A DNA stretch of 54,013 bases, from NCBI GenBank assembly GCA_964514575.1, contig CAZETJ010000001.1, forward strand, positions 1 to 54,013, written 5' to 3'. The translations under genes were made by a program, and so were the position numbers. Each line of letters opens with the position of its first letter. Positions within the stretch are counted from its first letter, which is position 1. The stretch is from an uncultured Candidatus Saccharibacteria bacterium (GTDB taxonomy: Bacteria; Patescibacteriota; Saccharimonadia; Saccharimonadales; UBA10212). Below are positions 9,278 through 53,441 of the stretch, in pieces. The notes under the pieces were generated by a model. That model saw only the letters and a program-made list of their open reading frames with translations. It was not told the origin of the DNA and searched no databases.

Positions 9278-10157
9278 GAAGCAGCTCCAATTTATTTTCT
9301 AAAACTAATTCTAGGAGTTCTTTGGCTTGGTCGCGAAAATCTATACCTTTGTTTTCAAGATCGCTGATGGCGTCCTTTTGCAGACCGAGTGTCCGCTGTA
9401 TCAATACTGCCATTAGCTGCTCGGATTGGTGAGTTCTGGGTTCGGCCATGGCCAAAAAACTCGACAAAAAATATTTTGGGATGGCCCTAGTTTTGGCAAA
9501 ACTATAAAGCCTGGTAAAACACCATGCCATATCGTAGTAGCGGGCGTGGCGAGAAGAAAAGTTCTCATAATCAATCAGGGTTATTTTATTATCCGGCCGC
9601 AAATATGCATGTTTGTAGGCACTCATGTCTCCGTGGGCAATTCCGGGCTCCAAATATTGCCCAAACCCTGCTGAGATTTCTTTAATGCGCTTAGAATTAG
9701 CTTCAGAAATTAGTTTGTCAGCCACATTTTCGTCGGCCCAGCGAGAAATGCTGAGCTCTAAATTTTCGTAATTGGACGAGCCTTTATAGCCAACCTCTTG
9801 CTTTACTTGTAAGCGATCAAGTCGGGCCAAAAGCTCTGCCAATTTATCCAGTCTTGGTTTGACCTCCTCCAGACTCATATCCTCTTTAGCTACTGGTGGA
9901 TCATCTGTAAATTCTCTTATATAAAAATCTGCCCCGGAATCAAACACTGCCGGTACATGTAGGGCCAAGTCGGGCTGTTTTTGGGCTAGATCAGTAAAAA
10001 ATTGCATCCCGAGTACGTCATTCTGCATCCTCTTGACCCGAGTTTCTGGCGCCGTAGGTTTTGCGGTCTTTTTTACGGCAGGTTTACCCTGCCAGTCTAT
10101 CAACTCAACTAAAAAGTTCTCGTCGTCCTGCAAAACCTGGCTCGGCTCGTGTGTCAT
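9270..10157 (-). CDS. APH/choline-kinase-like phosphotransferase
   Basis: AVKK lysine, HGDM catalytic loop, LIDYE; overlaps the HAD start by 8 nt. Confidence 0.75.
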   Translation of the reverse strand: MTHEPSQVLQDDENFLVELIDWQGKPAVKKTAKPTAPETRVKRMQNDVLGMQFFTDLAQKQPDLALHVPAVFDSGADFYIREFTDDPPVAKEDMSLEEVKPRLDKLAELLARLDRLQVKQEVGYKGSSNYENLELSISRWADENVADKLISEANSKRIKEISAGFGQYLEPGIAHGDMSAYKHAYLRPDNKITLIDYENFSSRHARYYDMAWCFTRLYSFAKTRAIPKYFLSSFLAMAEPRTHQSEQLMAVLIQRTLGLQKDAISDLENKGIDFRDQAKELLELVLENKLELLHD

Positions 10158-10194
10158 TAATAAATTCCTCTTCCTTTTAGTTTATTATGAACGG

Positions 10195-10941
10195 GTGAAT
10201 AGAACTATTGTGGTCCCGCTCGAAAAAGCCGGGGAGATCGAGGCGGCGGGTGGCAAAGCAGCATCGCTGGCACGTCTGATAAGGGCTGGTTTTAGAGTTC
10301 CGCAAGGTTTTGTAATTACTACCGGCTCGGAAATGAAGATGAACTCGGGACTCGAGGCACAAATTTTGGACAAGTTTGACAAAATGGGTGTTGAGACAGT
10401 GGCCGTACGCTCCAGCGCCGTAGCTGAGGACGGTAAAAATGACGCCTGGGCGGGTCAATTCGATACGTTTTTGAATATAAAGCGGCCTGAACTTATCGAA
10501 ACGATCAAGAAGTGCTGGGGCTCAACGGAATCTGAAAGAGCTAAAGCCTACGCCAAGAATAAAAGCATAAAAAGCGGTGCCGTGGCTGTGATTGTCCAAG
10601 AGATGGTACCAAGCGACGTTGCCGGCGTAGCGTTCTCTGTACACCCGGTAACCCAAAACAAAAGTCAGGCTGTAATAGAAGCCGTGCGGGGCTTAGGTGA
10701 AGGTCTGGTTTCCGGCAAAATAACGCCAGATACATATGTAGTCGCCAAAGACACATTTGGATTTATTGAAAGCAGTCTATCTGGAGATAAACCCATCTTG
10801 GGTGAATCAAAGCTTATAGATATTACCCAGCAGATCATAAAGATTGAGGCCCTTTATGGCTTCCCGGTTGATGTGGAGTGGGCTCTTGCCGATGGCCGGT
10901 CATATATCTTGCAGAGCCGGCCAATTACCACTTTGAGTTAA
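10195..10941 (+). CDS. Stand-alone PEP/pyruvate-binding (PPDK_N ATP-grasp) domain protein
   Basis: GGKAASL, VPQGFVIT, VAVRSSA.AEDG...WAGQFDTFLN, VQEMV, DVEWA, LQSRPIT; probable GTG start at 10195. Confidence 0.9.
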   Translation: MNRTIVVPLEKAGEIEAAGGKAASLARLIRAGFRVPQGFVITTGSEMKMNSGLEAQILDKFDKMGVETVAVRSSAVAEDGKNDAWAGQFDTFLNIKRPELIETIKKCWGSTESERAKAYAKNKSIKSGAVAVIVQEMVPSDVAGVAFSVHPVTQNKSQAVIEAVRGLGEGLVSGKITPDTYVVAKDTFGFIESSLSGDKPILGESKLIDITQQIIKIEALYGFPVDVEWALADGRSYILQSRPITTLS

Positions 10942-10950
10942 AATATCTTT

Positions 10951-12042
10951 ATGACGGATAGGCGACAGGCAAAATTATACGAGACACAAAAGTCACTGAC
11001 TGAGTGGCTGGAAGATATAAAGCATAAAGACGCGGAGACAATTCGGCTGGAAGATAATGAGAAGCGCGAACGCCTAAAGGTCTTAAAAGAGACCATCGGC
11101 CTGCCCTTTGACGAGCCAGTTAAGTTTGAGGCGCTGGATATCCAAAATAACACTCAAAAACTGAGGGCTTATATCAAAAAACATGGTAGCGAGCTATGCG
11201 CCCTAAGGTTGATACCCAAAAAGGCCAGTTTGCCTAAACTACGCATGCGCGGGCAAACCGTGGGCAATGTCTTGAAGTGGTTTTTTGAGCAAAAAATAGA
11301 TGCCAAAAATTACCGTGCAGAATTTATACCGCATGCAGAAATTTCGCAGTGGTCGACCATTTTCATTGTTAACAAGCACGGAATCCAGGGCGAGATTATC
11401 CGCGGCGGACATTACCAATTAACTCAAGGCTTTTTTGATAATGGCCAGCCAATCGTTTTTTTCTTTGATTTTAAAAAATGGAGGCTTTCTGTAGACGATA
11501 AGGAGGCCAAGAGTCAGCTGGAAATAATTGCCAGCCATCTGTGCGTCAAGAATAATACCAAGCAAAAAATCATTAAGCAGAAACTCGGCGGCAAATTTGC
11601 TGGCGACTATTTGCTTGGTTATTTTGAAACTGCTTCCAGCCAAGAGTTTGGGCTTTGGTTCGTAGATTACAGCCAATCGCTTGGCAGAATGTACGAAGAT
11701 GTAGTGCTAAAAACCCGCAACAAAAGTAGCGGGCTGGTTAGCGGTCAGGCTGGTAGCCCGGGCAAAGTCCGCGGGCCAGTTTGTATCGTCAATGCAGACA
11801 AGATCGGTGTTGATTTTCCAGACGGAGGCATCTTAGTCTGCAACGTTACTACGCCTGATTTCGTGCCTCTTATGCAAAAGGCCGCCGCCATTATCACCGA
11901 TCAGGGTGGTATCTTATCTCACGCCGCGATCGTTGCTCGAGAACTTAAAATACCTTGCATTGTCGGCACTGGCGACGCTACGGCGGTACTAAAAAATGGC
12001 CAGATCGTAAGCGTTAACGCTGACCTTGGTATTGTTACTTAA
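10951..12042 (+). CDS. Unknown N-terminal domain plus PEP-utiliser mobile (phospho-His swivel) domain
   Basis: GSPGKVRGPV, TTPDFVPLM, GGILSHAAIVAREL.IPCIVG. Confidence 0.88.
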   Translation: MTDRRQAKLYETQKSLTEWLEDIKHKDAETIRLEDNEKRERLKVLKETIGLPFDEPVKFEALDIQNNTQKLRAYIKKHGSELCALRLIPKKASLPKLRMRGQTVGNVLKWFFEQKIDAKNYRAEFIPHAEISQWSTIFIVNKHGIQGEIIRGGHYQLTQGFFDNGQPIVFFFDFKKWRLSVDDKEAKSQLEIIASHLCVKNNTKQKIIKQKLGGKFAGDYLLGYFETASSQEFGLWFVDYSQSLGRMYEDVVLKTRNKSSGLVSGQAGSPGKVRGPVCIVNADKIGVDFPDGGILVCNVTTPDFVPLMQKAAAIITDQGGILSHAAIVARELKIPCIVGTGDATAVLKNGQIVSVNADLGIVT

Positions 12043-30867: not shown

Positions 30868-31341
30868 TTATCGACGAGAACGGACGAAAGCGTGCGCACT
30901 GCCGGCCGCTAAGCTGGTCAGCAAGAAGACGGCTAGAACATTGCCTGGGCCGGTGTTAGCCAGCTGGGTGGGCTGTTGGGCTGTTGAACCGCCAGTTGAT
31001 TTTTGAGTTGTGGAGCTATTAGAACTTGGTGTGTTTTTAGCCGTAGAGTTGCTGGCTGTGTTTGAACCCGCTCCCGCACCTTTGACTGACGCAGTAGTGA
31101 TAGTTCCGGTTTTGTGATTAAGGTCGTGATGGTGAATACTGCGGCCAATTACTATGCCAGCGATTATCAGAATTACGGCTAGACCAGCCAAGGCTGGGAT
31201 GCTAACAAAGCGGCGCCAATTCAATTTCTTCGGACTAAATCTAAAATTGCGAGGCGTTTTTACGGTCTCAATTTCGTGATCATCAATAACTTCTTCGTGA
31301 TCTTCGATAGGCGGACGCCTAAAGCGTTCAATTACAGACAT
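30868..31341 (-). CDS. Membrane protein with S/T-rich linker and C-terminal LANTG sortase-like signal
   Basis: N-terminal TM, low-complexity linker, QLANTGP + hydrophobic helix + RSRR. Confidence 0.75.
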   Translation of the reverse strand: MSVIERFRRPPIEDHEEVIDDHEIETVKTPRNFRFSPKKLNWRRFVSIPALAGLAVILIIAGIVIGRSIHHHDLNHKTGTITTASVKGAGAGSNTASNSTAKNTPSSNSSTTQKSTGGSTAQQPTQLANTGPGNVLAVFLLTSLAAGSAHAFVRSRR

Positions 31342-31401: not shown

Positions 31402-33042
31402 TTACATCATGTCCATGCCGCCGCCCATAGCAGGCGAGGCAGGTGGATTCTTTTCGGGAACATCGGTTACCAGCGCGCCCATGGTCATGGCCGTTCCGGC
31501 AATTGAAACCGCGTTTTGGATCACTTCTTTAACGACACGAGTTGGATCAACTATGCCCTTTTCTTTAAGACTTACTAGCGCCTCTGGACTGTTCACGTCA
31601 AAGCCTGTTCCGGCCTTGGATTCCATAACTTTCTCGAGCTTGGCCTCAGCGTTCAGTCCCGCATTGTTCATGAGTTGCTTGAAGGGCTCGACTAGCGCAT
31701 TCTTGAGAATCCCTGCCCCAGCGGCATTAGAGCTAGCACCATCGACTTTAATGAACTTAGACAGATCAACCAATGTGACGCCACCGCCCGGCACAACGCC
31801 CTCTTCCAAAGCTGCTTTAACGGCATGGACAGCGTCATCAACACGGAATTTCTTCTCTTCGATCTCGGTCTCGGTCGCACCGCCAACTTTGATAACGGCA
31901 ACTTTGCCGGACAATGCGGCTCGGCGCTTCTCCAGTTGCTCGCGGTCGTACTCGCTAGAGGCGCTTTCGGCTTGTTTATTAATCTGGGCAACCCGCGCCT
32001 TAACGGCTGCGGCCGAACCAGAACCTTCCACAATCGTAGTTTCGTCTTTTGTAACGATGACTTTGCGGGCGCTACCAATTACTGACAGTTCAGCATTTTC
32101 AAAAGTCATTCCGGTATCCTCGGTAATAACTTCGCCGCCCGTCAAAATAGCGATATCCGCCAAAACTTCCTTTCGGCGGTCGCCAAAGCCTGGAGCCTTG
32201 ATAGCCACCGTGTTAAACACGCCCTTAAGGCGGTTAAGGATTAACGTTCCCAAAGCTTCACCATCAACGTCTTCAGCGATAATGACTAGATCTTTCTTGC
32301 CGCTCCCCGCCAGTTTTTCCAGCATTGGCAAAAAGTCCTGAACAGAGCTAATTTTTTGGTCGGTGATTAAAATTGCCGGCTTTTCATAAACTGCTTCCAT
32401 GCGGGCAGTGTCAGTCACCATGTACGGACTAATGTAGCCGCGGTCGGTAGTAAAGCCCTCGACCACTTCGCTTTCCATGCTCAAGCCCTGGCCTTCTTCA
32501 ACGGTCACGACACCATCTTTGCCGACTTTTTCCATAACCTCAGCAATTAATGTTCCGATCTGTTCATCGCCTGCGCTAATCGTGGCGACTTCGGCCACTC
32601 GACTTTTCTTGGAGCCGATATTTTCACTCAAGCTGCCCAATTTGGCCAGCACGTCAGTGGCGGCTGATTCCAAACCACGGCGCAGCAACATCGGGTTGTG
32701 GCCAGCGGCGATTAATTTATTGGCTTCATTCAAGATGTGATAGGTCAGTACAGTGACAGTGGTTGTGCCGTCGCCGGCAACATCGTTCATCTTGCTGGCG
32801 GCTTCTTTAATCAGCTCGGCGCCGACTTTGTAGCCTAGCGTTTCGTCGTCTTTATCTTCCAATTCGATACCTTTGGCGACCGTTACACCATCGTGTGTCA
32901 CGGTCGGATGCCCGTAGCTCTTGCTTATGATCACGTTTCGGCCCTTGGGACCCATCGTGGTCTTTACCGCGTTATATAAAACTTCCGCTCCGGCTAAAAT
33001 CCGGCGTCGGGCGTCGTCATCATAAAAAACTTTCTTAGCCAT
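31402..33042 (-). CDS. groL: Chaperonin GroEL
   Basis: GPKGRN, AGDGTTT, GGATETE, GGGMDMM tail. Confidence 0.99.
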   Translation of the reverse strand: MAKKVFYDDDARRRILAGAEVLYNAVKTTMGPKGRNVIISKSYGHPTVTHDGVTVAKGIELEDKDDETLGYKVGAELIKEAASKMNDVAGDGTTTVTVLTYHILNEANKLIAAGHNPMLLRRGLESAATDVLAKLGSLSENIGSKKSRVAEVATISAGDEQIGTLIAEVMEKVGKDGVVTVEEGQGLSMESEVVEGFTTDRGYISPYMVTDTARMEAVYEKPAILITDQKISSVQDFLPMLEKLAGSGKKDLVIIAEDVDGEALGTLILNRLKGVFNTVAIKAPGFGDRRKEVLADIAILTGGEVITEDTGMTFENAELSVIGSARKVIVTKDETTIVEGSGSAAAVKARVAQINKQAESASSEYDREQLEKRRAALSGKVAVIKVGGATETEIEEKKFRVDDAVHAVKAALEEGVVPGGGVTLVDLSKFIKVDGASSNAAGAGILKNALVEPFKQLMNNAGLNAEAKLEKVMESKAGTGFDVNSPEALVSLKEKGIVDPTRVVKEVIQNAVSIAGTAMTMGALVTDVPEKNPPASPAMGGGMDMM

Positions 33043-33165
33043 TTAATTTTTTCCTTTCCCTGATAATTTAGATTCGATTGATTCGAGCAATTTAATCATT
33101 TTATCCATCCGGCTGATAAGCCAGGCGAAGTTTAGTAAAAGGACAATCAGAATTATTAGTTCCAT
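33043..33165 (-). CDS. 40-aa single-TM microprotein between groES and groEL
   Basis: Hand translation MELIILIVLLLNFAWLISRMDKMIKLLESIESKLSGKGKN; ATG 1 nt after the groES TAG; TAA abuts the groEL ATG. Confidence 0.7.
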   Translation of the reverse strand: MELIILIVLLLNFAWLISRMDKMIKLLESIESKLSGKGKN

Positions 33166-33166
33166 A

Positions 33167-33430
33167 CTAGCCTTTCACAGTCGCTAAAATGTCTTCTTCT
33201 TTAACCAGAATGTACTCTTTGGCACCGATTTTTACTTCAGTCGTAGAGTAACTTTTGTAAACAATCTTGTCGCCGGCTTTAACGGCTTTAACATCCTTGC
33301 CAACTTTTAAAACTTTGGCAATCTTCGGTTTTTCGGCTGCTTTTTCGGGTAAGTAAAGACCGCTCGCGGTTTTGGACTGTGCCTCTTCCTGCTCGGCCAC
33401 GACCCAATCGGCCAATGGATTTAAATTCAC
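33167..33430 (-). CDS. groS: Co-chaperonin GroES
   Basis: PLAD.VV, KTASGLYLP, V.AGD...Y, E.DILA; GGAGG upstream of GTG. Confidence 0.98.
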   Translation of the reverse strand: MNLNPLADWVVAEQEEAQSKTASGLYLPEKAAEKPKIAKVLKVGKDVKAVKAGDKIVYKSYSTTEVKIGAKEYILVKEEDILATVKG

Positions 33431-33472: not shown

Positions 33473-33499
33473 CTGGCACTCATAATAGCCGAGTGCTAA
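33473..33499 (-). promoter_or_regulatory. CIRCE element (HrcA operator)
   Basis: Minus strand TTAGCACTC-N9-GAGTGCCAG versus consensus TTAGCACTC-N9-GAGTGCTAA; upstream of groES. Confidence 0.93.
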
Positions 33500-33511
33500 A
33501 AACTCTGTCAA
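33482..33511 (-). promoter_or_regulatory. Sigma-70 promoter of groESL
   Basis: TTGACA(33511-33506)-N18-TATTAT(33487-33482), with the -10 inside the CIRCE spacer. Confidence 0.7.
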
Positions 33512-33549: not shown

Positions 33550-33609
33550 CCAGAGGTTCCTATCATTCGACCGACCGCCGCAAGCGGTCGATGAAGGGAG
33601 GGCGCTGTC

Positions 33610-33978
33610 TTGGCATCCGAGACAGTCAGGGTCGTGTGCGTCGATAAGCGTGCGTACGAGCTCCGGCATCGTCCATGGAGAAACGAGATCATCGCGGTCT
33701 CGCCGAACCCGTCGGACGAAGTTCGTGACAAGAGGTTCTCGCGTAAACTACGCGAGAACCTCCACGGCACCGGTTTCGGCTACGACTCGCGCTGGCAGAC
33801 CTTCAAGGTCGACGGCTTCGAGCAGATCAGCTTCGCCGTCTTCTCGATTCCGCCGCGCCTGCGCGGTCGGCACTTGTCCGCGGAGGTCATGCTGGACACC
33901 CTCGAGGCGAGATTCCGCCAGAGCTTCAGGGAGCCCGTCGTCTCGAGATCGCCACGCGCCACCCTGGTCGCCGCCTAG
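33610..33978 (+). CDS. Orphan 122-aa protein with foreign codon usage
   Basis: GGAGG 8 nt before TTG; only 20 of 122 codons end in A/T (GC3 about 84%), which picks this frame over the other open frames. Confidence 0.7.
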   Translation: MASETVRVVCVDKRAYELRHRPWRNEIIAVSPNPSDEVRDKRFSRKLRENLHGTGFGYDSRWQTFKVDGFEQISFAVFSIPPRLRGRHLSAEVMLDTLEARFRQSFREPVVSRSPRATLVAA

Positions 33979-34047
33979 CCGCACCTTCACGAAAAGATTC
34001 GGGCGAAAACGCTCGATAGGCGGGCTCAAATCCCGCCGGCGCATCCA
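33955..34047 (+). ncRNA. Degenerate tRNA/tmRNA-like module
   Basis: T-arm GCGGG-CTCAAAT-CCCGC followed by exactly 7 nt + T + CCA; 7-bp variable-arm-like hairpin; partial acceptor and D stems; anticodon arm poor. Confidence 0.4.
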
Positions 34048-34214
34048 AGTGCTCACCCTCCTGCTTGGTGCGTGTATCGCCTTCCTCCCTGCCTCGCGAA
34101 CGGGCCCGGCCTGATCAAGGCCGGGCCCACCGCGGGTCCGAACGATCGGAACAATGCCGCGTGTTCGCTCCTCATCCGAGCGAGCCGCGGCTCTTTTCAT
34201 TTATAATCAAACCC

Positions 34215-49285: not shown

Positions 49286-52200
49286 ATGAAAACCCTAAAA
49301 AGATTAGCATTGGGCATGGCCGCACTGACGGTTTTTTTACCGATATTTTTCGGGTTTGTGCCAACAGTAAAAGCAGCCGGCGGCCCCAGCGCCCCACCGC
49401 CAACAACCTCGTCTAACCCCATACCAACACAGTCGGACTATTGGAAGATCTGTGCTCTAAAGGTTGTTTACCCTAATGCCCAGGGCAATGGTACAGATAT
49501 TTGTAGCCTAACAGATACGAGTAGCGATGGTTCGGCCAGTTTTATTTATGGATCATCGCCGGCTAATGCTTTGACCGAAGCCATATATGATACTAAATAT
49601 GGGGCGAATCCGCCTACAACCATTAACCTAAAAAATCCGGACGGTGTTGATGACCTAACCGGGGGTTCATCTACCCAGGAGACGCTGGCGTGGAACAACG
49701 TCGGTTACACTAATAGCTCTTATACCGTGTCTGGCACGCTTAATGGTACCCCCCAGAGCGTAAAATTTTACGTCTTTCAACCCGGGCTAGGCGCGCCGAA
49801 TTACAAAAACTACTCGCTTTTAGTATCTATAAACTCCGATAAATCATTGCATGTCTTGGCGATGGTTTACAACGTACCGACCAACAATCAGGTGGTAGCG
49901 GCCCCGATCGATAAAGTAGCTGTTGGGATAACATCGTCGGGTGCGTTATGTACTTCGGCTTCGGAAGCTAGCTGTGGCCCTGCCTCGATTTATTCAGCAA
50001 CAGTTAATAACCCGACCTCCGCTTGTGTAACACAGAGCAACATGGGTTTGGAGTGGCTTCTTTGTCCGTTGGTTGATGATTTCGATAAGGCTGCTGACCG
50101 TATAAATGGACTAATAGAAACTCAACTCAACTTTAACGTTAGCCAAAACCTGCCGGACAACGGGCCGGTACATTTTGCCTGGTCAATAATTAAAGATATC
50201 GCATCAAGTCTGGTGGTACTCCTGCTACTGGTTATGGTTATTGCCCAGGCCTTTGGTGGTGGACCATTCGAGGCTTACACGATCCGTAAAATGCTGCCCA
50301 AGTTGGTTGTTGCGGTCATAGCCATGCAGCTATCTTGGGATATTTGTAAATATTTGATCGATCTAGCCAACAGCGTGGGGCAGGGGGTTGCGTCAATACT
50401 AACCTTGCCCTTTAACAACAGCCCCGGGGCTCTGACGCTTAATGGAATACTTACAAAACTGGCCCCCAGTAACTTTCAGGCTGCGCAGGCGGCTCTGCCA
50501 ATCACCTTTATTATCCTGGGGTTCATTGGCTTGGTGGCACTTCCGACAACCATGGTGCTGCTGTTCAGCCTGCTGGTCGGCGTCTTCGCGGCGCTGATGG
50601 TCCTACTTTTCCGGAATGTTCTAATTGTGGCCCTGGTGTTGTTCTCGTCGTTGGCCTTTTTGGCCTGGACCATGAACGGCACGCAAAACCTATGGAAAAC
50701 CTGGAGAAGCAATTTTGGCAAATTATTGATGCTGTTCCCGGTGGTTATTTCCATCATCTACGTCGGGCGTATCTTTGCCTGGATAGCTGCCGGAGCCTCT
50801 GGTGACAGCATCATCAAATGGATAACCGTAGTCATCGCCTACTTCGGTCCATACTTCATCATCTTTAAGGCCTATAAGTGGGGAGGTGGACTATTGAGCG
50901 CAGCCGGCAATGGTATTAATAATGCCAGTAACCGAATCAATAAGGGTTCGGAGCAGACTATTCGTGGGATCGGCGAACGATATCAGGGCAAAAGAGCAAA
51001 AATGTATGATCCCAATGCCGGTTTGGGCTCTAGGACACTACGTCGGATTCAGTCGGGCCATGTAATACCTTTCTCTAAACGATCCCAGCGGCTAGCCATT
51101 GCCGCGGGTGATAAGTGGCAAAACGAACGCGATGAAGAAGCCTTAGCCCTTATTAATCGGAAGGGCGAAGGAGCCCGTCGTGATGGTTATGACATTACCC
51201 GCAGAGATAAACAGGGCCGAGTACAGAAGTATAAGCTCGAGAATGGGCACATGGTAGATAAGCAGGGCCGCGTGACAACTGACGCAGATAAGGCCGTTAC
51301 GGAGGATGCGAATCCGGGCGATCAATTAGCCACAAAACATTTGACTGGCGTAGCGGCAATGAAGCAGATGTGGGTTGACTTAGCAGAGGATGGGCGTGAC
51401 GTCCATGAAAAGAAAATGGCTGTCAGACAGCTACTAGCCACTAGCTCCTGGCCTGAAATTCAAGGATCCTTTACGCGAAGCGGCAAGAAAGTTTTTGATA
51501 CTGATATCTGGAACCCAGCTGTTACAGGCAGCCCGGAAGATTATCCAAAGGTTTTGCGTAGTCGGGTTGACGCAACTCCACATATTCTAGATTCTGCAGA
51601 CAAGGCTTTGGTCTCCAAGAACGCAGAGCTTAGGCAATCCGGGAAAGCTTCTCTGTCCGAACTGGATGCCAGAGAATTCAAGGCAGCCTACCGAATGAAT
51701 TATGCCCTCGATAAACAAATGAGCAACGAAGACTTTGCTACTCAGTCCGATGGCTTCTGGGAAGAGGCCGCTCGGCTAGCCAGCCTACGCGACCCCGTAA
51801 CTGGCCAGCTGACAGAAGAAGCTCGCAGTATTCGTCGCAATCTAAGGGCCCGCCTAAAGTCAATCCATGATATTGGTGGAACTGCTCCTCAACAATTGCT
51901 GGGGCACCTGCAAAACGGCGGAGATCTGCAGACTAGTGTGGAAACAGCGCTCGGCGTTTCTAAAGGAAGACTCAGCGCTTATACTGACCCTCGCACAGAA
52001 GTACTCGAAAATTATCCGGTCGTTATTGACGAAAAGGTAGAGCCCGTAACCACGGCGGAAAGGGCTTCGCAAATCTATACTGCCGGGAATCCCGCGGGCG
52101 GATCTAGAACAAGGCGAGTCACTAGAGAAAACCTACATAACATGTCAGAGGAAAATGCTATTGACTGGGTCCGGTCCCAGGAGGGATATCAGAGCCTATC

Positions 52201-52447
52201 CAATGAGGACCTGGTCGCCCTATACAACTCTAGGTCTCGCCTTCCAGGCAGTGCGGTTCAGCAAGCTGCCAGACAGGAATTGAGAAGGCGAGGCGTACTA
52301 AATCCCGAGGACAGTACGACGCTTAACATACCTCACAGTGAGAACATTGTTCTGCCTGGAGAGCGTGGTTTTGAGCCCCCTGATTCCAGTCAGCTACCCG
52401 GTGGACCAAATTTTAATAATCCAAATCGGCCTGGAGGCGCCCGATGA
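49286..52447 (+). CDS. Large VirB6/TrbL-like polytopic membrane protein
   Basis: Signal peptide, ~220-aa extracellular domain, WL.CP, W...K.IA, LPKLVVAVI, W..W...F.KLL..FP, long charged C-terminus; between pilins and PrgI. Family call is by context. Confidence 0.75.
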   Translation: MKTLKRLALGMAALTVFLPIFFGFVPTVKAAGGPSAPPPTTSSNPIPTQSDYWKICALKVVYPNAQGNGTDICSLTDTSSDGSASFIYGSSPANALTEAIYDTKYGANPPTTINLKNPDGVDDLTGGSSTQETLAWNNVGYTNSSYTVSGTLNGTPQSVKFYVFQPGLGAPNYKNYSLLVSINSDKSLHVLAMVYNVPTNNQVVAAPIDKVAVGITSSGALCTSASEASCGPASIYSATVNNPTSACVTQSNMGLEWLLCPLVDDFDKAADRINGLIETQLNFNVSQNLPDNGPVHFAWSIIKDIASSLVVLLLLVMVIAQAFGGGPFEAYTIRKMLPKLVVAVIAMQLSWDICKYLIDLANSVGQGVASILTLPFNNSPGALTLNGILTKLAPSNFQAAQAALPITFIILGFIGLVALPTTMVLLFSLLVGVFAALMVLLFRNVLIVALVLFSSLAFLAWTMNGTQNLWKTWRSNFGKLLMLFPVVISIIYVGRIFAWIAAGASGDSIIKWITVVIAYFGPYFIIFKAYKWGGGLLSAAGNGINNASNRINKGSEQTIRGIGERYQGKRAKMYDPNAGLGSRTLRRIQSGHVIPFSKRSQRLAIAAGDKWQNERDEEALALINRKGEGARRDGYDITRRDKQGRVQKYKLENGHMVDKQGRVTTDADKAVTEDANPGDQLATKHLTGVAAMKQMWVDLAEDGRDVHEKKMAVRQLLATSSWPEIQGSFTRSGKKVFDTDIWNPAVTGSPEDYPKVLRSRVDATPHILDSADKALVSKNAELRQSGKASLSELDAREFKAAYRMNYALDKQMSNEDFATQSDGFWEEAARLASLRDPVTGQLTEEARSIRRNLRARLKSIHDIGGTAPQQLLGHLQNGGDLQTSVETALGVSKGRLSAYTDPRTEVLENYPVVIDEKVEPVTTAERASQIYTAGNPAGGSRTRRVTRENLHNMSEENAIDWVRSQEGYQSLSNEDLVALYNSRSRLPGSAVQQAARQELRRRGVLNPEDSTTLNIPHSENIVLPGERGFEPPDSSQLPGGPNFNNPNRPGGAR

Positions 52448-52484
52448 TTGCGCTTGAGATTTTTCTAAAAGATAATGGTTAAAG

Positions 52485-53441
52485 ATGGCTGTATATAAAG
52501 TAATTCAAGATATCGAGGCCGAAGATAAAATTGTCGGTCCCTTAAGTCTTAAAGGTTTCGTCTATGCAGCCGCCGCCGGTGTTTTAGCCTTTGTTAGTAT
52601 CCGCTTACTAATTAGCGGGTTGCCGTGGTTTATAAAGCTTATTTTTATAGTAGCTTTTTTGCCGCCAATGTTATTATTCGGCGTTCTGGCAAGCCCACTG
52701 GGTCGCGAACAGCCGACCGAGGTCTGGCTACTATCACGAATCCGGTTCCTTCTGAAGCCTCGTGAACGTATTTGGGATCAAGCCGGTACTAAACAGCTTG
52801 TTACTATAACCGCTCCAAAGCGCCCAGAACAGATGCTAACCAAAAACTTGAGCCAGACTGAAGTTGCCAGCCGCTTGCAATCTCTAGCTAGTACACTGGA
52901 CAGTCGTGGTTGGGCCGGTAAAAATACGTCTATAAACTTGGGTGCTCAACCTAGTTATCTTGACACTCAGGTCGACGACGATCGCCTGAGCACCGCAACC
53001 GTTAGCGAAGCGGCTCAACCGGTACTGGATGTTCGTCCGTCGGACGATATCCTAGACGAGCAGAATAACCCGGCCGCTCAAACCATGGTGGCGCTAGTTG
53101 AGCAAAAAGAAGCAGAGCGTAAACAGGCTCTGATTGACCAAATGAACGCCACCCGAGATGAAACCGACCGTCAGACTTCTGTCAGAAATAAGTCCGAGGC
53201 TGGCAACGAATTGACCGAGGATGAGGAAAAGTTGCTAAACCAACTCCACGCCCGCGACGCCGCCTTTTCCCACCCTCAAATTATCCGAGCCGGAGCAACC
53301 GACATGCCGGTGACAGGCAATTCCCAAACTGTTAAACTGGAGCTAGCCCAAAGTGGTAATGATTTAAGCGTGGCAAGTATTGCTCGTCTCGTCAACCGAA
53401 GCGCATCGAGCTTTCCTGGCGAGGTCGAAATCCCGCTTTAG
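52485..53441 (+). CDS. PrgI-family (VirB3-like) protein
   Basis: YKV.QDIEAEDKIVGPLSL..F, 2 TMs, QP.E.WL...I.F..KP..R.W. Confidence 0.85.
   Translation: MAVYKVIQDIEAEDKIVGPLSLKGFVYAAAAGVLAFVSIRLLISGLPWFIKLIFIVAFLPPMLLFGVLASPLGREQPTEVWLLSRIRFLLKPRERIWDQAGTKQLVTITAPKRPEQMLTKNLSQTEVASRLQSLASTLDSRGWAGKNTSINLGAQPSYLDTQVDDDRLSTATVSEAAQPVLDVRPSDDILDEQNNPAAQTMVALVEQKEAERKQALIDQMNATRDETDRQTSVRNKSEAGNELTEDEEKLLNQLHARDAAFSHPQIIRAGATDMPVTGNSQTVKLELAQSGNDLSVASIARLVNRSASSFPGEVEIPL

Follow-up and report, generated by a model that had tools for sequence, protein, structure and literature searches.

The groES-groEL operon is among the most conserved and most studied of all two-gene operons. We analysed a stretch of 54,013 nucleotides from an uncultured Candidatus Saccharibacteria bacterium of soil (the window), in which a 40-codon open reading frame occupies the gap between these two genes. 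The question is whether this ORF is a gene and, if so, what its product does between the two chaperonin genes. Saccharibacteria are epibionts with reduced genomes, and their proteostasis and envelope biology are poorly understood.

Layout and expression signals of the operon

The operon is encoded on the minus strand. Its parts, in window coordinates, are:

33482-33511, minus: sigma70-like promoter TTGACA-18 nt-TATTAT, 11/12 consensus match
33473-33499, minus: CIRCE-like inverted repeat TTAGCACTC-GGCTATTAT-GAGTGCCAG, presumed HrcA operator
33167-33430, minus: groES (Cpn10), 87 aa, GTG start, end ...TVKG-TAG
33171-33176, minus: weak SD-like GAAAGG in the final codons of groES, 5 nt ahead of the ATG of the microgene
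33166, minus: single T between the groES TAG and the microgene ATG
33043-33165, minus: microgene (P0001), the third cistron, encoding a predicted 40-aa single-helix protein; ATG at 33165, TAA at 33045-33043
33112-33159, minus: hydrophobic predicted transmembrane segment LIILIVLLLNFAWLIS, codons 3-18
33061-33111, minus: amphipathic helix with heptad seam RMDKMIKLLESIESKLS, codons 19-35
33052-33059, minus: groEL Shine-Dalgarno (SD) GGAAAGGA, within the microgene's Gly-Lys-Gly tail codons and 9 nt ahead of the groEL ATG
31402-33042, minus: groEL (Cpn60), 546 aa; its ATG at 33042 abuts the microgene TAA

Read along the minus strand, the order is groES TAG-T-ATG microgene TAA-ATG groEL, and the 124-nt gap is wholly filled by a conserved ORF of 40 codons with the product MELIILIVLLLNFAWLISRMDKMIKLLESIESKLSGKGKN. 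A preliminary description of this locus had placed the ORF one nucleotide after groES and flush with groEL, and had noted a hydrophobic stretch, a heptad-like segment and an SD-like motif in the last codons. The sequence and the ORF coordinates agree with it on each of these points, the hydrophobic residues being 3-18 and the 3-4 seam running through residues 19-35. The ORF had also been called unannotated; this holds for a name or a curated family, but the exact peptide has already been called on five contigs (JGI/IMG and ENA callers). Relatives of the microprotein in NCBI MAGs carry the label 'hypothetical protein'. The window groES is 50-87% identical to Saccharibacteria GroES, with Pfam Cpn10 on record for its orthologues, and the window groEL is 71-84% identical to 80 Saccharibacteria GroEL sequences. 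The organism belongs to the Patescibacteria, and among these to the Saccharibacteria, in line with the preliminary description. The microgene region is AT-rich, with 37.5-39% GC in 200-nt windows against 44-52% in the groES and groEL flanks, and this fits either Leu/Ile/Lys-rich coding or a foreign origin.

The -10 hexamer sits in the loop of the CIRCE-like repeat, promoter and operator thus overlapping. The repeat matches TTAGCACTC-N9-GAGTGCTAA at 16 of 18 positions and is found 42 nt upstream of the groES start. Such an element, with at least 14/18 matches, precedes groES in 83 of 85 related loci, in carriers and non-carriers of the microgene alike. No promoter-like or terminator-like sites were found inside the operon, and no HrcA domain or hrcA gene was present among the 20 window proteins scanned. 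In the preliminary description the ORF was proposed as a third, HrcA-regulated member of the operon. Its place as third cistron is borne out by the in-line position in 14 of 15 known contexts, and HrcA-type control is plausible, as judged from the operator at the promoter. The locus shares gene order, strand, a single sigma70-like promoter and a CIRCE-like repeat across the -10 region with canonical CIRCE/HrcA groESL operons. It differs in that the canonical bicistronic operon has a short non-coding spacer, whereas here a third cistron fills the junction and supplies the groEL ribosome binding site. In the literature searched, neither a gene located between groES and groEL nor a GroEL-linked small protein of Saccharibacteria is described.

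The 13 carriers examined all have the same geometry: 0-4 nt separate the upstream stop from the start of the ORF, whose own stop codon either abuts the ATG of the next gene or overlaps it as TAATG. The downstream gene has a good SD (-5.4 to -9.4 kcal/mol) within the tail codons AAG AAG GAG AAG AAA (AAGGAG), and the K-K-E-K-K tail of the relatives reads AAGAAGGAGAAGAAATAATG. The KEKK tail is probably conserved in part as an SD and not for the function of the protein. The SD of the microgene itself is variable over carriers, from -3.1 to -11.7 kcal/mol, and weak (-3 to -5) in several of them; in the window, the duplex of GAAAGG with the 16S 3' end has -3.7 kcal/mol. Because the gap to the groES stop is only 1 nt, termination-reinitiation would be the likelier start mechanism for the microgene.

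Family, selection and distribution

An ORF filling the gap was obtained in just 0.22% of 200,000 shuffles of the 124-nt sequence. A word-indexed search of 5.8e9 proteins returned two close relatives, with identities of 77% and 73% to the window peptide. For comparison of the junction, 80 Saccharibacteria groEL loci were fetched, and three of 79 species representatives (L056, L070 and L079, all distant) have a similarly built ORF in the groES-groEL slot. When 1.84e9 representatives were searched exhaustively with a HMMER profile, 25 matches were obtained at E<1e-3, about 22 of which are 34-55-aa peptides of the same architecture. Following a final, word-indexed profile search, the family comprises at least 36 members of 34-55 aa, where P0019, P0024 and P0031 bridge the subfamily of the window to other members. 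Taxon labels, where existing, are Saccharimonadales/Saccharibacteria, and the subfamilies are deeply diverged (20-30% identity). Pfam, NCBIfam, PADLOC and PHROGs gave no match above threshold and the PDB sequences no significant one. The microprotein family is previously undescribed, with neither a curated family nor a functional name. The label 'YqiK' given to P0015 by JGI appears unsupported, no curated family being above threshold.

Frame conservation and dN/dS had been named in the preliminary description among the ways to check the ORF. Both speak for a real selected gene, as frame and motif are kept family-wide and dN/dS is about 0.08-0.15. The microgenes of the window and L084 have a pS of 0.70 and a pN of 0.15, i.e. 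an omega of about 0.08, and for the window and L081 the values are 0.96 (synonymous sites saturated) and 0.17. For the closest carrier pair, L097 and L098, the omega values are 0.15 (microgene), 0.087 (groEL) and 0.019 (groES). Pairwise variability over the three codon positions is 0.28/0.12/0.59, which is a coding pattern. By these measures, purifying selection on the microgene is about as strong as on groEL. Conservation is the decisive evidence, and the microgene is a genuine selected protein-coding gene and not a chance ORF. The divergence of the peptide against that of GroEL was uninformative (rho 0.06, with GroEL identity compressed to 74-91%), and no signal of co-evolution between microprotein and GroEL was obtained.

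A chance ORF, a structured noncoding RNA or a type I toxin in an expanded spacer has a negligible probability. Spacer expansion has other causes, as seen from the 12 of 79 relatives with microgene-less spacers of 39-135 nt, but conservation of frame and motif over the whole family, together with the rarity of such an ORF among the shuffles, refutes the chance-ORF and RNA readings for practical purposes. A structured RNA or thermometer in the spacer was also rejected because the junction RNA has no Rfam match and its mRNA fold is no more stable than that of shuffled sequences (MFE z = -1.09), the groEL SD being unpaired. Type I toxins (Hok, Fst, TisB, Ibs) bear a superficial likeness to the microprotein, with about 30-50 aa, a hydrophobic helix and a charged tail. 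However, a consensus scan, which is a weak test, found neither an antisense RNA locus nor a promoter of its own, and nothing promoter-like in or beside the ORF on the opposite strand; PADLOC and Pfam gave no match for the microprotein. Toxin ORFs of this type are normally silent in translation; the geometry here implies coupled translation, and coupling into an essential, highly expressed operon would not be tolerable for a toxin.

The genomic context is known for 15 distinct members. Fourteen are flush between Cpn10 and Cpn60 (the window, P0003, P0009, P0010, P0011, P0015, P0047, P0050, P0048, P0019 and P0031, and also P0004, P0005 and P0006 in L056, L070 and L079, respectively). The exception is P0002, 77% identical to the window peptide, which on three contigs is flush between rplE (L5) and rpsN (S14), and at the DNA level it is homologous to the window from ATG to stop only. 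A look-up of identical S14 proteins gave empty L5-S14 junctions, where the L5 TAA overlaps the S14 ATG, in seven contigs. One of these, L102, has 91-95% nucleotide identity to the filled haplotype over L5, S14 and S8. The two copies of an imperfect direct repeat of 17 nt in L081, AGAAGGAGGACAAATAA / AGAAGGAGAAAATATAA, are 123 nt apart, which is exactly the length of the insert.

At the groESL site the microgene is rare and patchy, a point missed in the preliminary description. The groES-groEL spacer is 0-29 nt in 63 of 79 species representatives, typically groES-TAG-GAGGA-N5-ATG, and the nearest GroEL relative of the window (L001, 84%) has a spacer of 10 nt. A frame broken in close relatives had been suggested as evidence against the gene, and what the nearest relatives have is an absent ORF and not a broken one, so that this criterion does not apply in the form proposed. 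In a neighbour-joining (NJ) GroEL tree, which is poorly resolved, the nearest neighbours of carriers are mostly non-carriers, and contigs from co-resident relatives (same rhizosphere metagenomes) have no such ORF but a short canonical junction. The microgene is dispensable in about 96% of related species. The genes next to it in carriers are housekeeping genes; no second copy was found in the window or in 110 loci, and no association with phages, plasmids or viruses. In a scan of metagenome contigs, the wide family alignment contained no stretch conserved enough, and subfamily A led to one already known locus.

The long spacers without the microgene, 39-135 nt in 12 of the 79 Saccharibacteria species, are heterogeneous:

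L003:1098-1226, microgene-less long spacer
L019:2866-3000, microgene-less long spacer
L033:2783-2908, microgene-less long spacer
L045:2885-3000, microgene-less long spacer
L038, L062, L065, L066, L077, L032, L046 and L036, further microgene-less long spacers

A TTTAACA-type motif is common to the spacers of L003, L019 and L045, and in that of L019 there is an ORF of about 45 aa that is flush and not hydrophobic. All-frame profile searches and pairwise DNA alignments did not establish the ORF-less long spacers as decayed remnants of the microgene; the sole remnant-like trace is an 18-nt match between L090 and L062 (p about 0.003 before multiple testing).

Unrelated ORFs were observed at junctions of the spc operon. 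Relatives have an acidic 49-aa ORF at L5-S14 (L103:170-319), the same site as that of the L081 microprotein, and a 67-aa ORF, MANSPERSPLEEGRW...KLRKEEI, is found at S8-L6 (L100:2178-2381). Junction ORFs of this operon are also present on L101, L103-L106 and L108. The 49-aa and 67-aa ORFs begin 0-2 nt behind the preceding stop codon, end in TAATG after a K/E tail that contains an SD, and recur as 'hypothetical protein' on 11 and 5 contigs, respectively. Junction-filling microgenes are possibly a general feature of these genomes.

Predicted protein and comparison with known systems

The family consensus starts with M-[DE], followed by about 16 hydrophobic residues ending W-A/G-F, the helix motif R-[VI]-[ED]-x-N-x-x-K-x4-L-x-R-I-E-K-x-L and a K/E tail (KEKK). 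Across members, 1-5 residues precede the hydrophobic segment, and in most of them the uncharged, uninterrupted stretch is about 16 residues with a mean Kyte-Doolittle (KD) value of 2.0-3.3. In the window peptide, residues 3-18 are hydrophobic but for one Asn (N12). This Asn12 is invariant in six of six aligned members of subfamily A, where it interrupts the stretch and leaves 9+ residues with a KD of about 4. The hydrophobic positions of the amphipathic helix are spaced 4-3-4-3-4, giving a heptad seam continuous with the membrane helix; in the window peptide the seam residues are M20, M23/I24, L27, I30 and L34, within residues 19-35. AlphaFold2, run with a family alignment of 30 sequences, gave one continuous helix over residues 2-39 with a mean pLDDT of 90.6.

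The N-terminal flank M-D/E has a net charge of -1, and the amphipathic tail (muH 0.35-0.64) is between +1 and +5 across members; in the window peptide the values are -1 (M-E) and +3. Because of this charge difference, the positive-inside rule predicts a single-pass membrane anchor with the N-terminus out and the C-terminus in. As a counterpoint to a membrane anchor, the hydrophobic segment is short (16-17 residues) and holds an Asn. Polar Asn residues in membrane segments are known to drive helix association, and oligomerisation is likely in view of the heptad seam and the Asn that is invariant in subfamily A.

The microprotein was compared with several known systems. Small membrane proteins such as AcrZ, MgtS, MgrB and Prli42 have in common with it a length of at most 50 aa, one hydrophobic helix and a link to a stress regulon. 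Features used to recognise this class are present here, namely a conserved, selected short ORF and one helix predicted to be able to span the bilayer, with flank charges setting the topology. In contrast to those proteins, the microprotein has a predicted N-out/C-in orientation, a coiled-coil-like cytosolic helix and a gene in line between essential genes, and it has no sequence similarity to any curated family.

FtsL (NCBIfam NF049847, FtsL_COG5462) has a comparable layout of a transmembrane helix followed by a leucine-zipper-like helix, and this explains why 8 of 30 members match the model weakly, at profile positions 4-44 and 13-20 bits (best 20.2) against a cut-off of 50. Identity with FtsL was rejected. 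The matches are below the cut-off and the window peptide is unmatched; the microprotein is no more than half as long as the 85-position model, lacks a cytoplasmic segment at its N-terminus, and is encoded between Cpn10 and Cpn60 and not in a division/cell-wall cluster.

The regulatory peptides MifM and SecM, encoded upstream of yidC2 and secA, also come from a small ORF with an N-terminal hydrophobic segment, with the SD of a downstream proteostasis gene at the ORF 3' end. In these peptides the C-terminal arrest motif is conserved, whereas in the groESL microprotein the whole peptide is. The ribosomal tunnel holds about 30-40 residues. An arrest peptide of this type was rejected, the microprotein being too short for membrane engagement before termination and the junction having no SD-sequestering hairpin. 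A classical mobile element (IS, MITE or integron cassette) was also rejected, with no significant terminal inverted repeats, housekeeping neighbours and a single copy in the window and the 110 loci; the only such feature is the 17-nt SD/stop direct repeat flanking the L081 copy.

Possible roles of the microprotein

The best explanation overall, to which we give, together with its inferred steps, a probability of roughly 0.55, is an accessory gene for a single-helix microprotein of roughly 40 aa that is the middle cistron of a tricistronic groES-X-groEL operon. The microgene would be transcribed with groES and groEL under heat-shock control of the HrcA type, and the microprotein would be made via termination-reinitiation coupling in amounts comparable to those of the chaperonin. 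It would insert N-out/C-in as a single-pass anchor of about 16 hydrophobic residues and may self-associate by means of the polar membrane Asn (in subfamily A) and the three-heptad cytosolic amphipathic helix. The weakest step is the role itself, which would be that of a membrane component of the heat-shock regulon acting with the chaperonin, for example with the amphipathic helix as a docking site. The 3' end of the microgene replaces the SD/stop/start junction of the downstream gene, such that the cassette can be gained or lost cleanly, and this explains both the patchy distribution and the single relocation to L5-S14.

That deeply diverged subfamilies are associated almost exclusively with groES-groEL speaks for a functional tie, be it to the chaperonin or to the heat-shock regulon. 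Absence from most relatives and the copy in a ribosomal-protein operon argue that this tie, chaperonin co-regulation included, is not obligatory. A physical or functional link of any kind to GroES/EL is a real possibility that falls short of even odds, and tethering of the chaperonin specifically is unlikely. There is a precedent for a miniprotein that tethers a large stress complex of the cytosol: Prli42 reportedly anchors the Listeria stressosome to the membrane. The suggestion of the preliminary description that the microprotein recruits chaperonin to the membrane is speculation.

A small membrane protein acting independently of the chaperonin is doubtful but deserves attention. Such a protein would modulate a larger membrane protein (a quality-control protease, an insertase or a transporter) or protect the bilayer in heat stress, the groESL junction being merely a convenient heat-inducible site of high expression. 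The base rate from small-protein biology (AcrZ, MgtS, MgrB, SpoVM and others) favours it, as most characterised bacterial small membrane proteins bind and modulate a larger membrane protein. The persistence of P0002, intact in a ribosomal operon, and the lack of covariation with GroEL point the same way. Fourteen of 15 contexts are nevertheless the same groES-groEL junction, which is hard to understand if any strong operon would do, and no gene that could encode a partner is regularly found next to it. That the ORF acts in cis, for coupling or regulation, is very improbable. Ribosome passage would set the GroES:GroEL ratio or sense the capacity for membrane insertion, with the peptide being secondary. 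The flush stop/start with the groEL SD inside the ORF tail is as such an ORF would have it, and an N-terminal hydrophobic segment ahead of a proteostasis gene recalls MifM-yidC2. But amino acids are conserved while synonymous sites are saturated, no structure occludes the SD (z = -1.09, SD unpaired), and 63 of 79 relatives manage with a spacer of 0-29 nt. At 34-55 aa, moreover, the hydrophobic segment would be barely out of the ribosomal tunnel at termination, making co-translational sensing implausible.

It is distinctly unlikely that the microgene is a selfish or commensal in-line cassette, spreading among stop/start junctions of essential, strongly expressed operons and kept since its 3' end has replaced the RBS/start junction of an essential gene, where only precise excision is tolerated; the peptide would then serve mainly for retention or harmlessness. 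Several observations are in its favour: the occurrence of one gene in two essential operons that are unrelated, where homology does not extend beyond ATG..stop, the empty site in the 91-95%-identical L102, the L081 repeat one insert length apart, unrelated ORFs with the same geometry at L5-S14 and S8-L6, the patchiness on the GroEL tree and the AT-rich microgene region. The direct repeat can, however, be explained by functional convergence, as both ends need an SD and a stop. Purifying selection covers the whole peptide including the conserved cytosolic motif, synonymous saturation between copies means no sign of recent spread, and there is a single relocation in 15 contexts, with one copy each in the window and the 110 loci. 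Neither a recombinase nor terminal inverted repeats were found in the window, and there were no phage, plasmid or viral matches. A wider proposal, which we consider rather improbable, is that portable 'in-line microgene cassettes' are a mode of gene gain and loss in the ultra-small Saccharibacteria, the groESL microprotein being the most successful one. Short ORFs running from an upstream stop to their own SD and TAATG would drop into, or excise without scar from, stop/start junctions of essential, highly expressed operons (groES-groEL, L5-S14, S8-L6). They would hijack transcription and translational coupling, with no promoter or recombinase of their own. If it were true that the cassette also docks GroEL at the membrane, this would define a membrane-associated chaperonin in epibiotic bacteria.

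A selected third cistron that supplies the groEL RBS is a new architecture for this operon, and its product is a concrete candidate for a chaperonin partner or modifier in Saccharibacteria. It also adds a new, well-supported microprotein family (at least 36 members, dN/dS 0.08-0.15). The presence/absence polymorphism, the relocation to the spc operon and the unrelated junction ORFs suggest a general way in which tiny genes arise, are parked and disappear again inside essential operons.

Further observations were made in the window. Immediately downstream of groEL, at 30868-31341 (minus), a 157-aa protein has an N-terminal TM and a Ser/Thr/Asn-rich low-complexity region, with no Pfam match; at its C-terminus, LANTG precedes a hydrophobic stretch and RSRR, together a cell-wall sorting signal of the sortase type (LPXTG-like). 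A GC-rich island at 33600-34200 (61-66.5% GC against a background of about 50%) separates the groES promoter from a divergent DDAH/amidinotransferase-like gene. Overlapping ORFs are present there in several frames, with no Pfam match for a 154-aa ORF and no Rfam match, and the equivalent region in relatives has different unannotated ORFs. Five tRNA genes cluster at 41.8-44.6 kb and 29.7 kb. At 49286-53441 (plus), an ORF of 1053 aa precedes the gene for a 318-aa PrgI-family domain (PF12666) protein, a pair that suggests a type IV secretion or conjugation-like module. Finally, adjacent ORFs 9 nt apart at 10033-12042 (plus) encode PPDK_N (ATP-grasp) and PEP-utilizers mobile-domain proteins, which together form a split PEP synthase / pyruvate phosphate dikinase-like enzyme.
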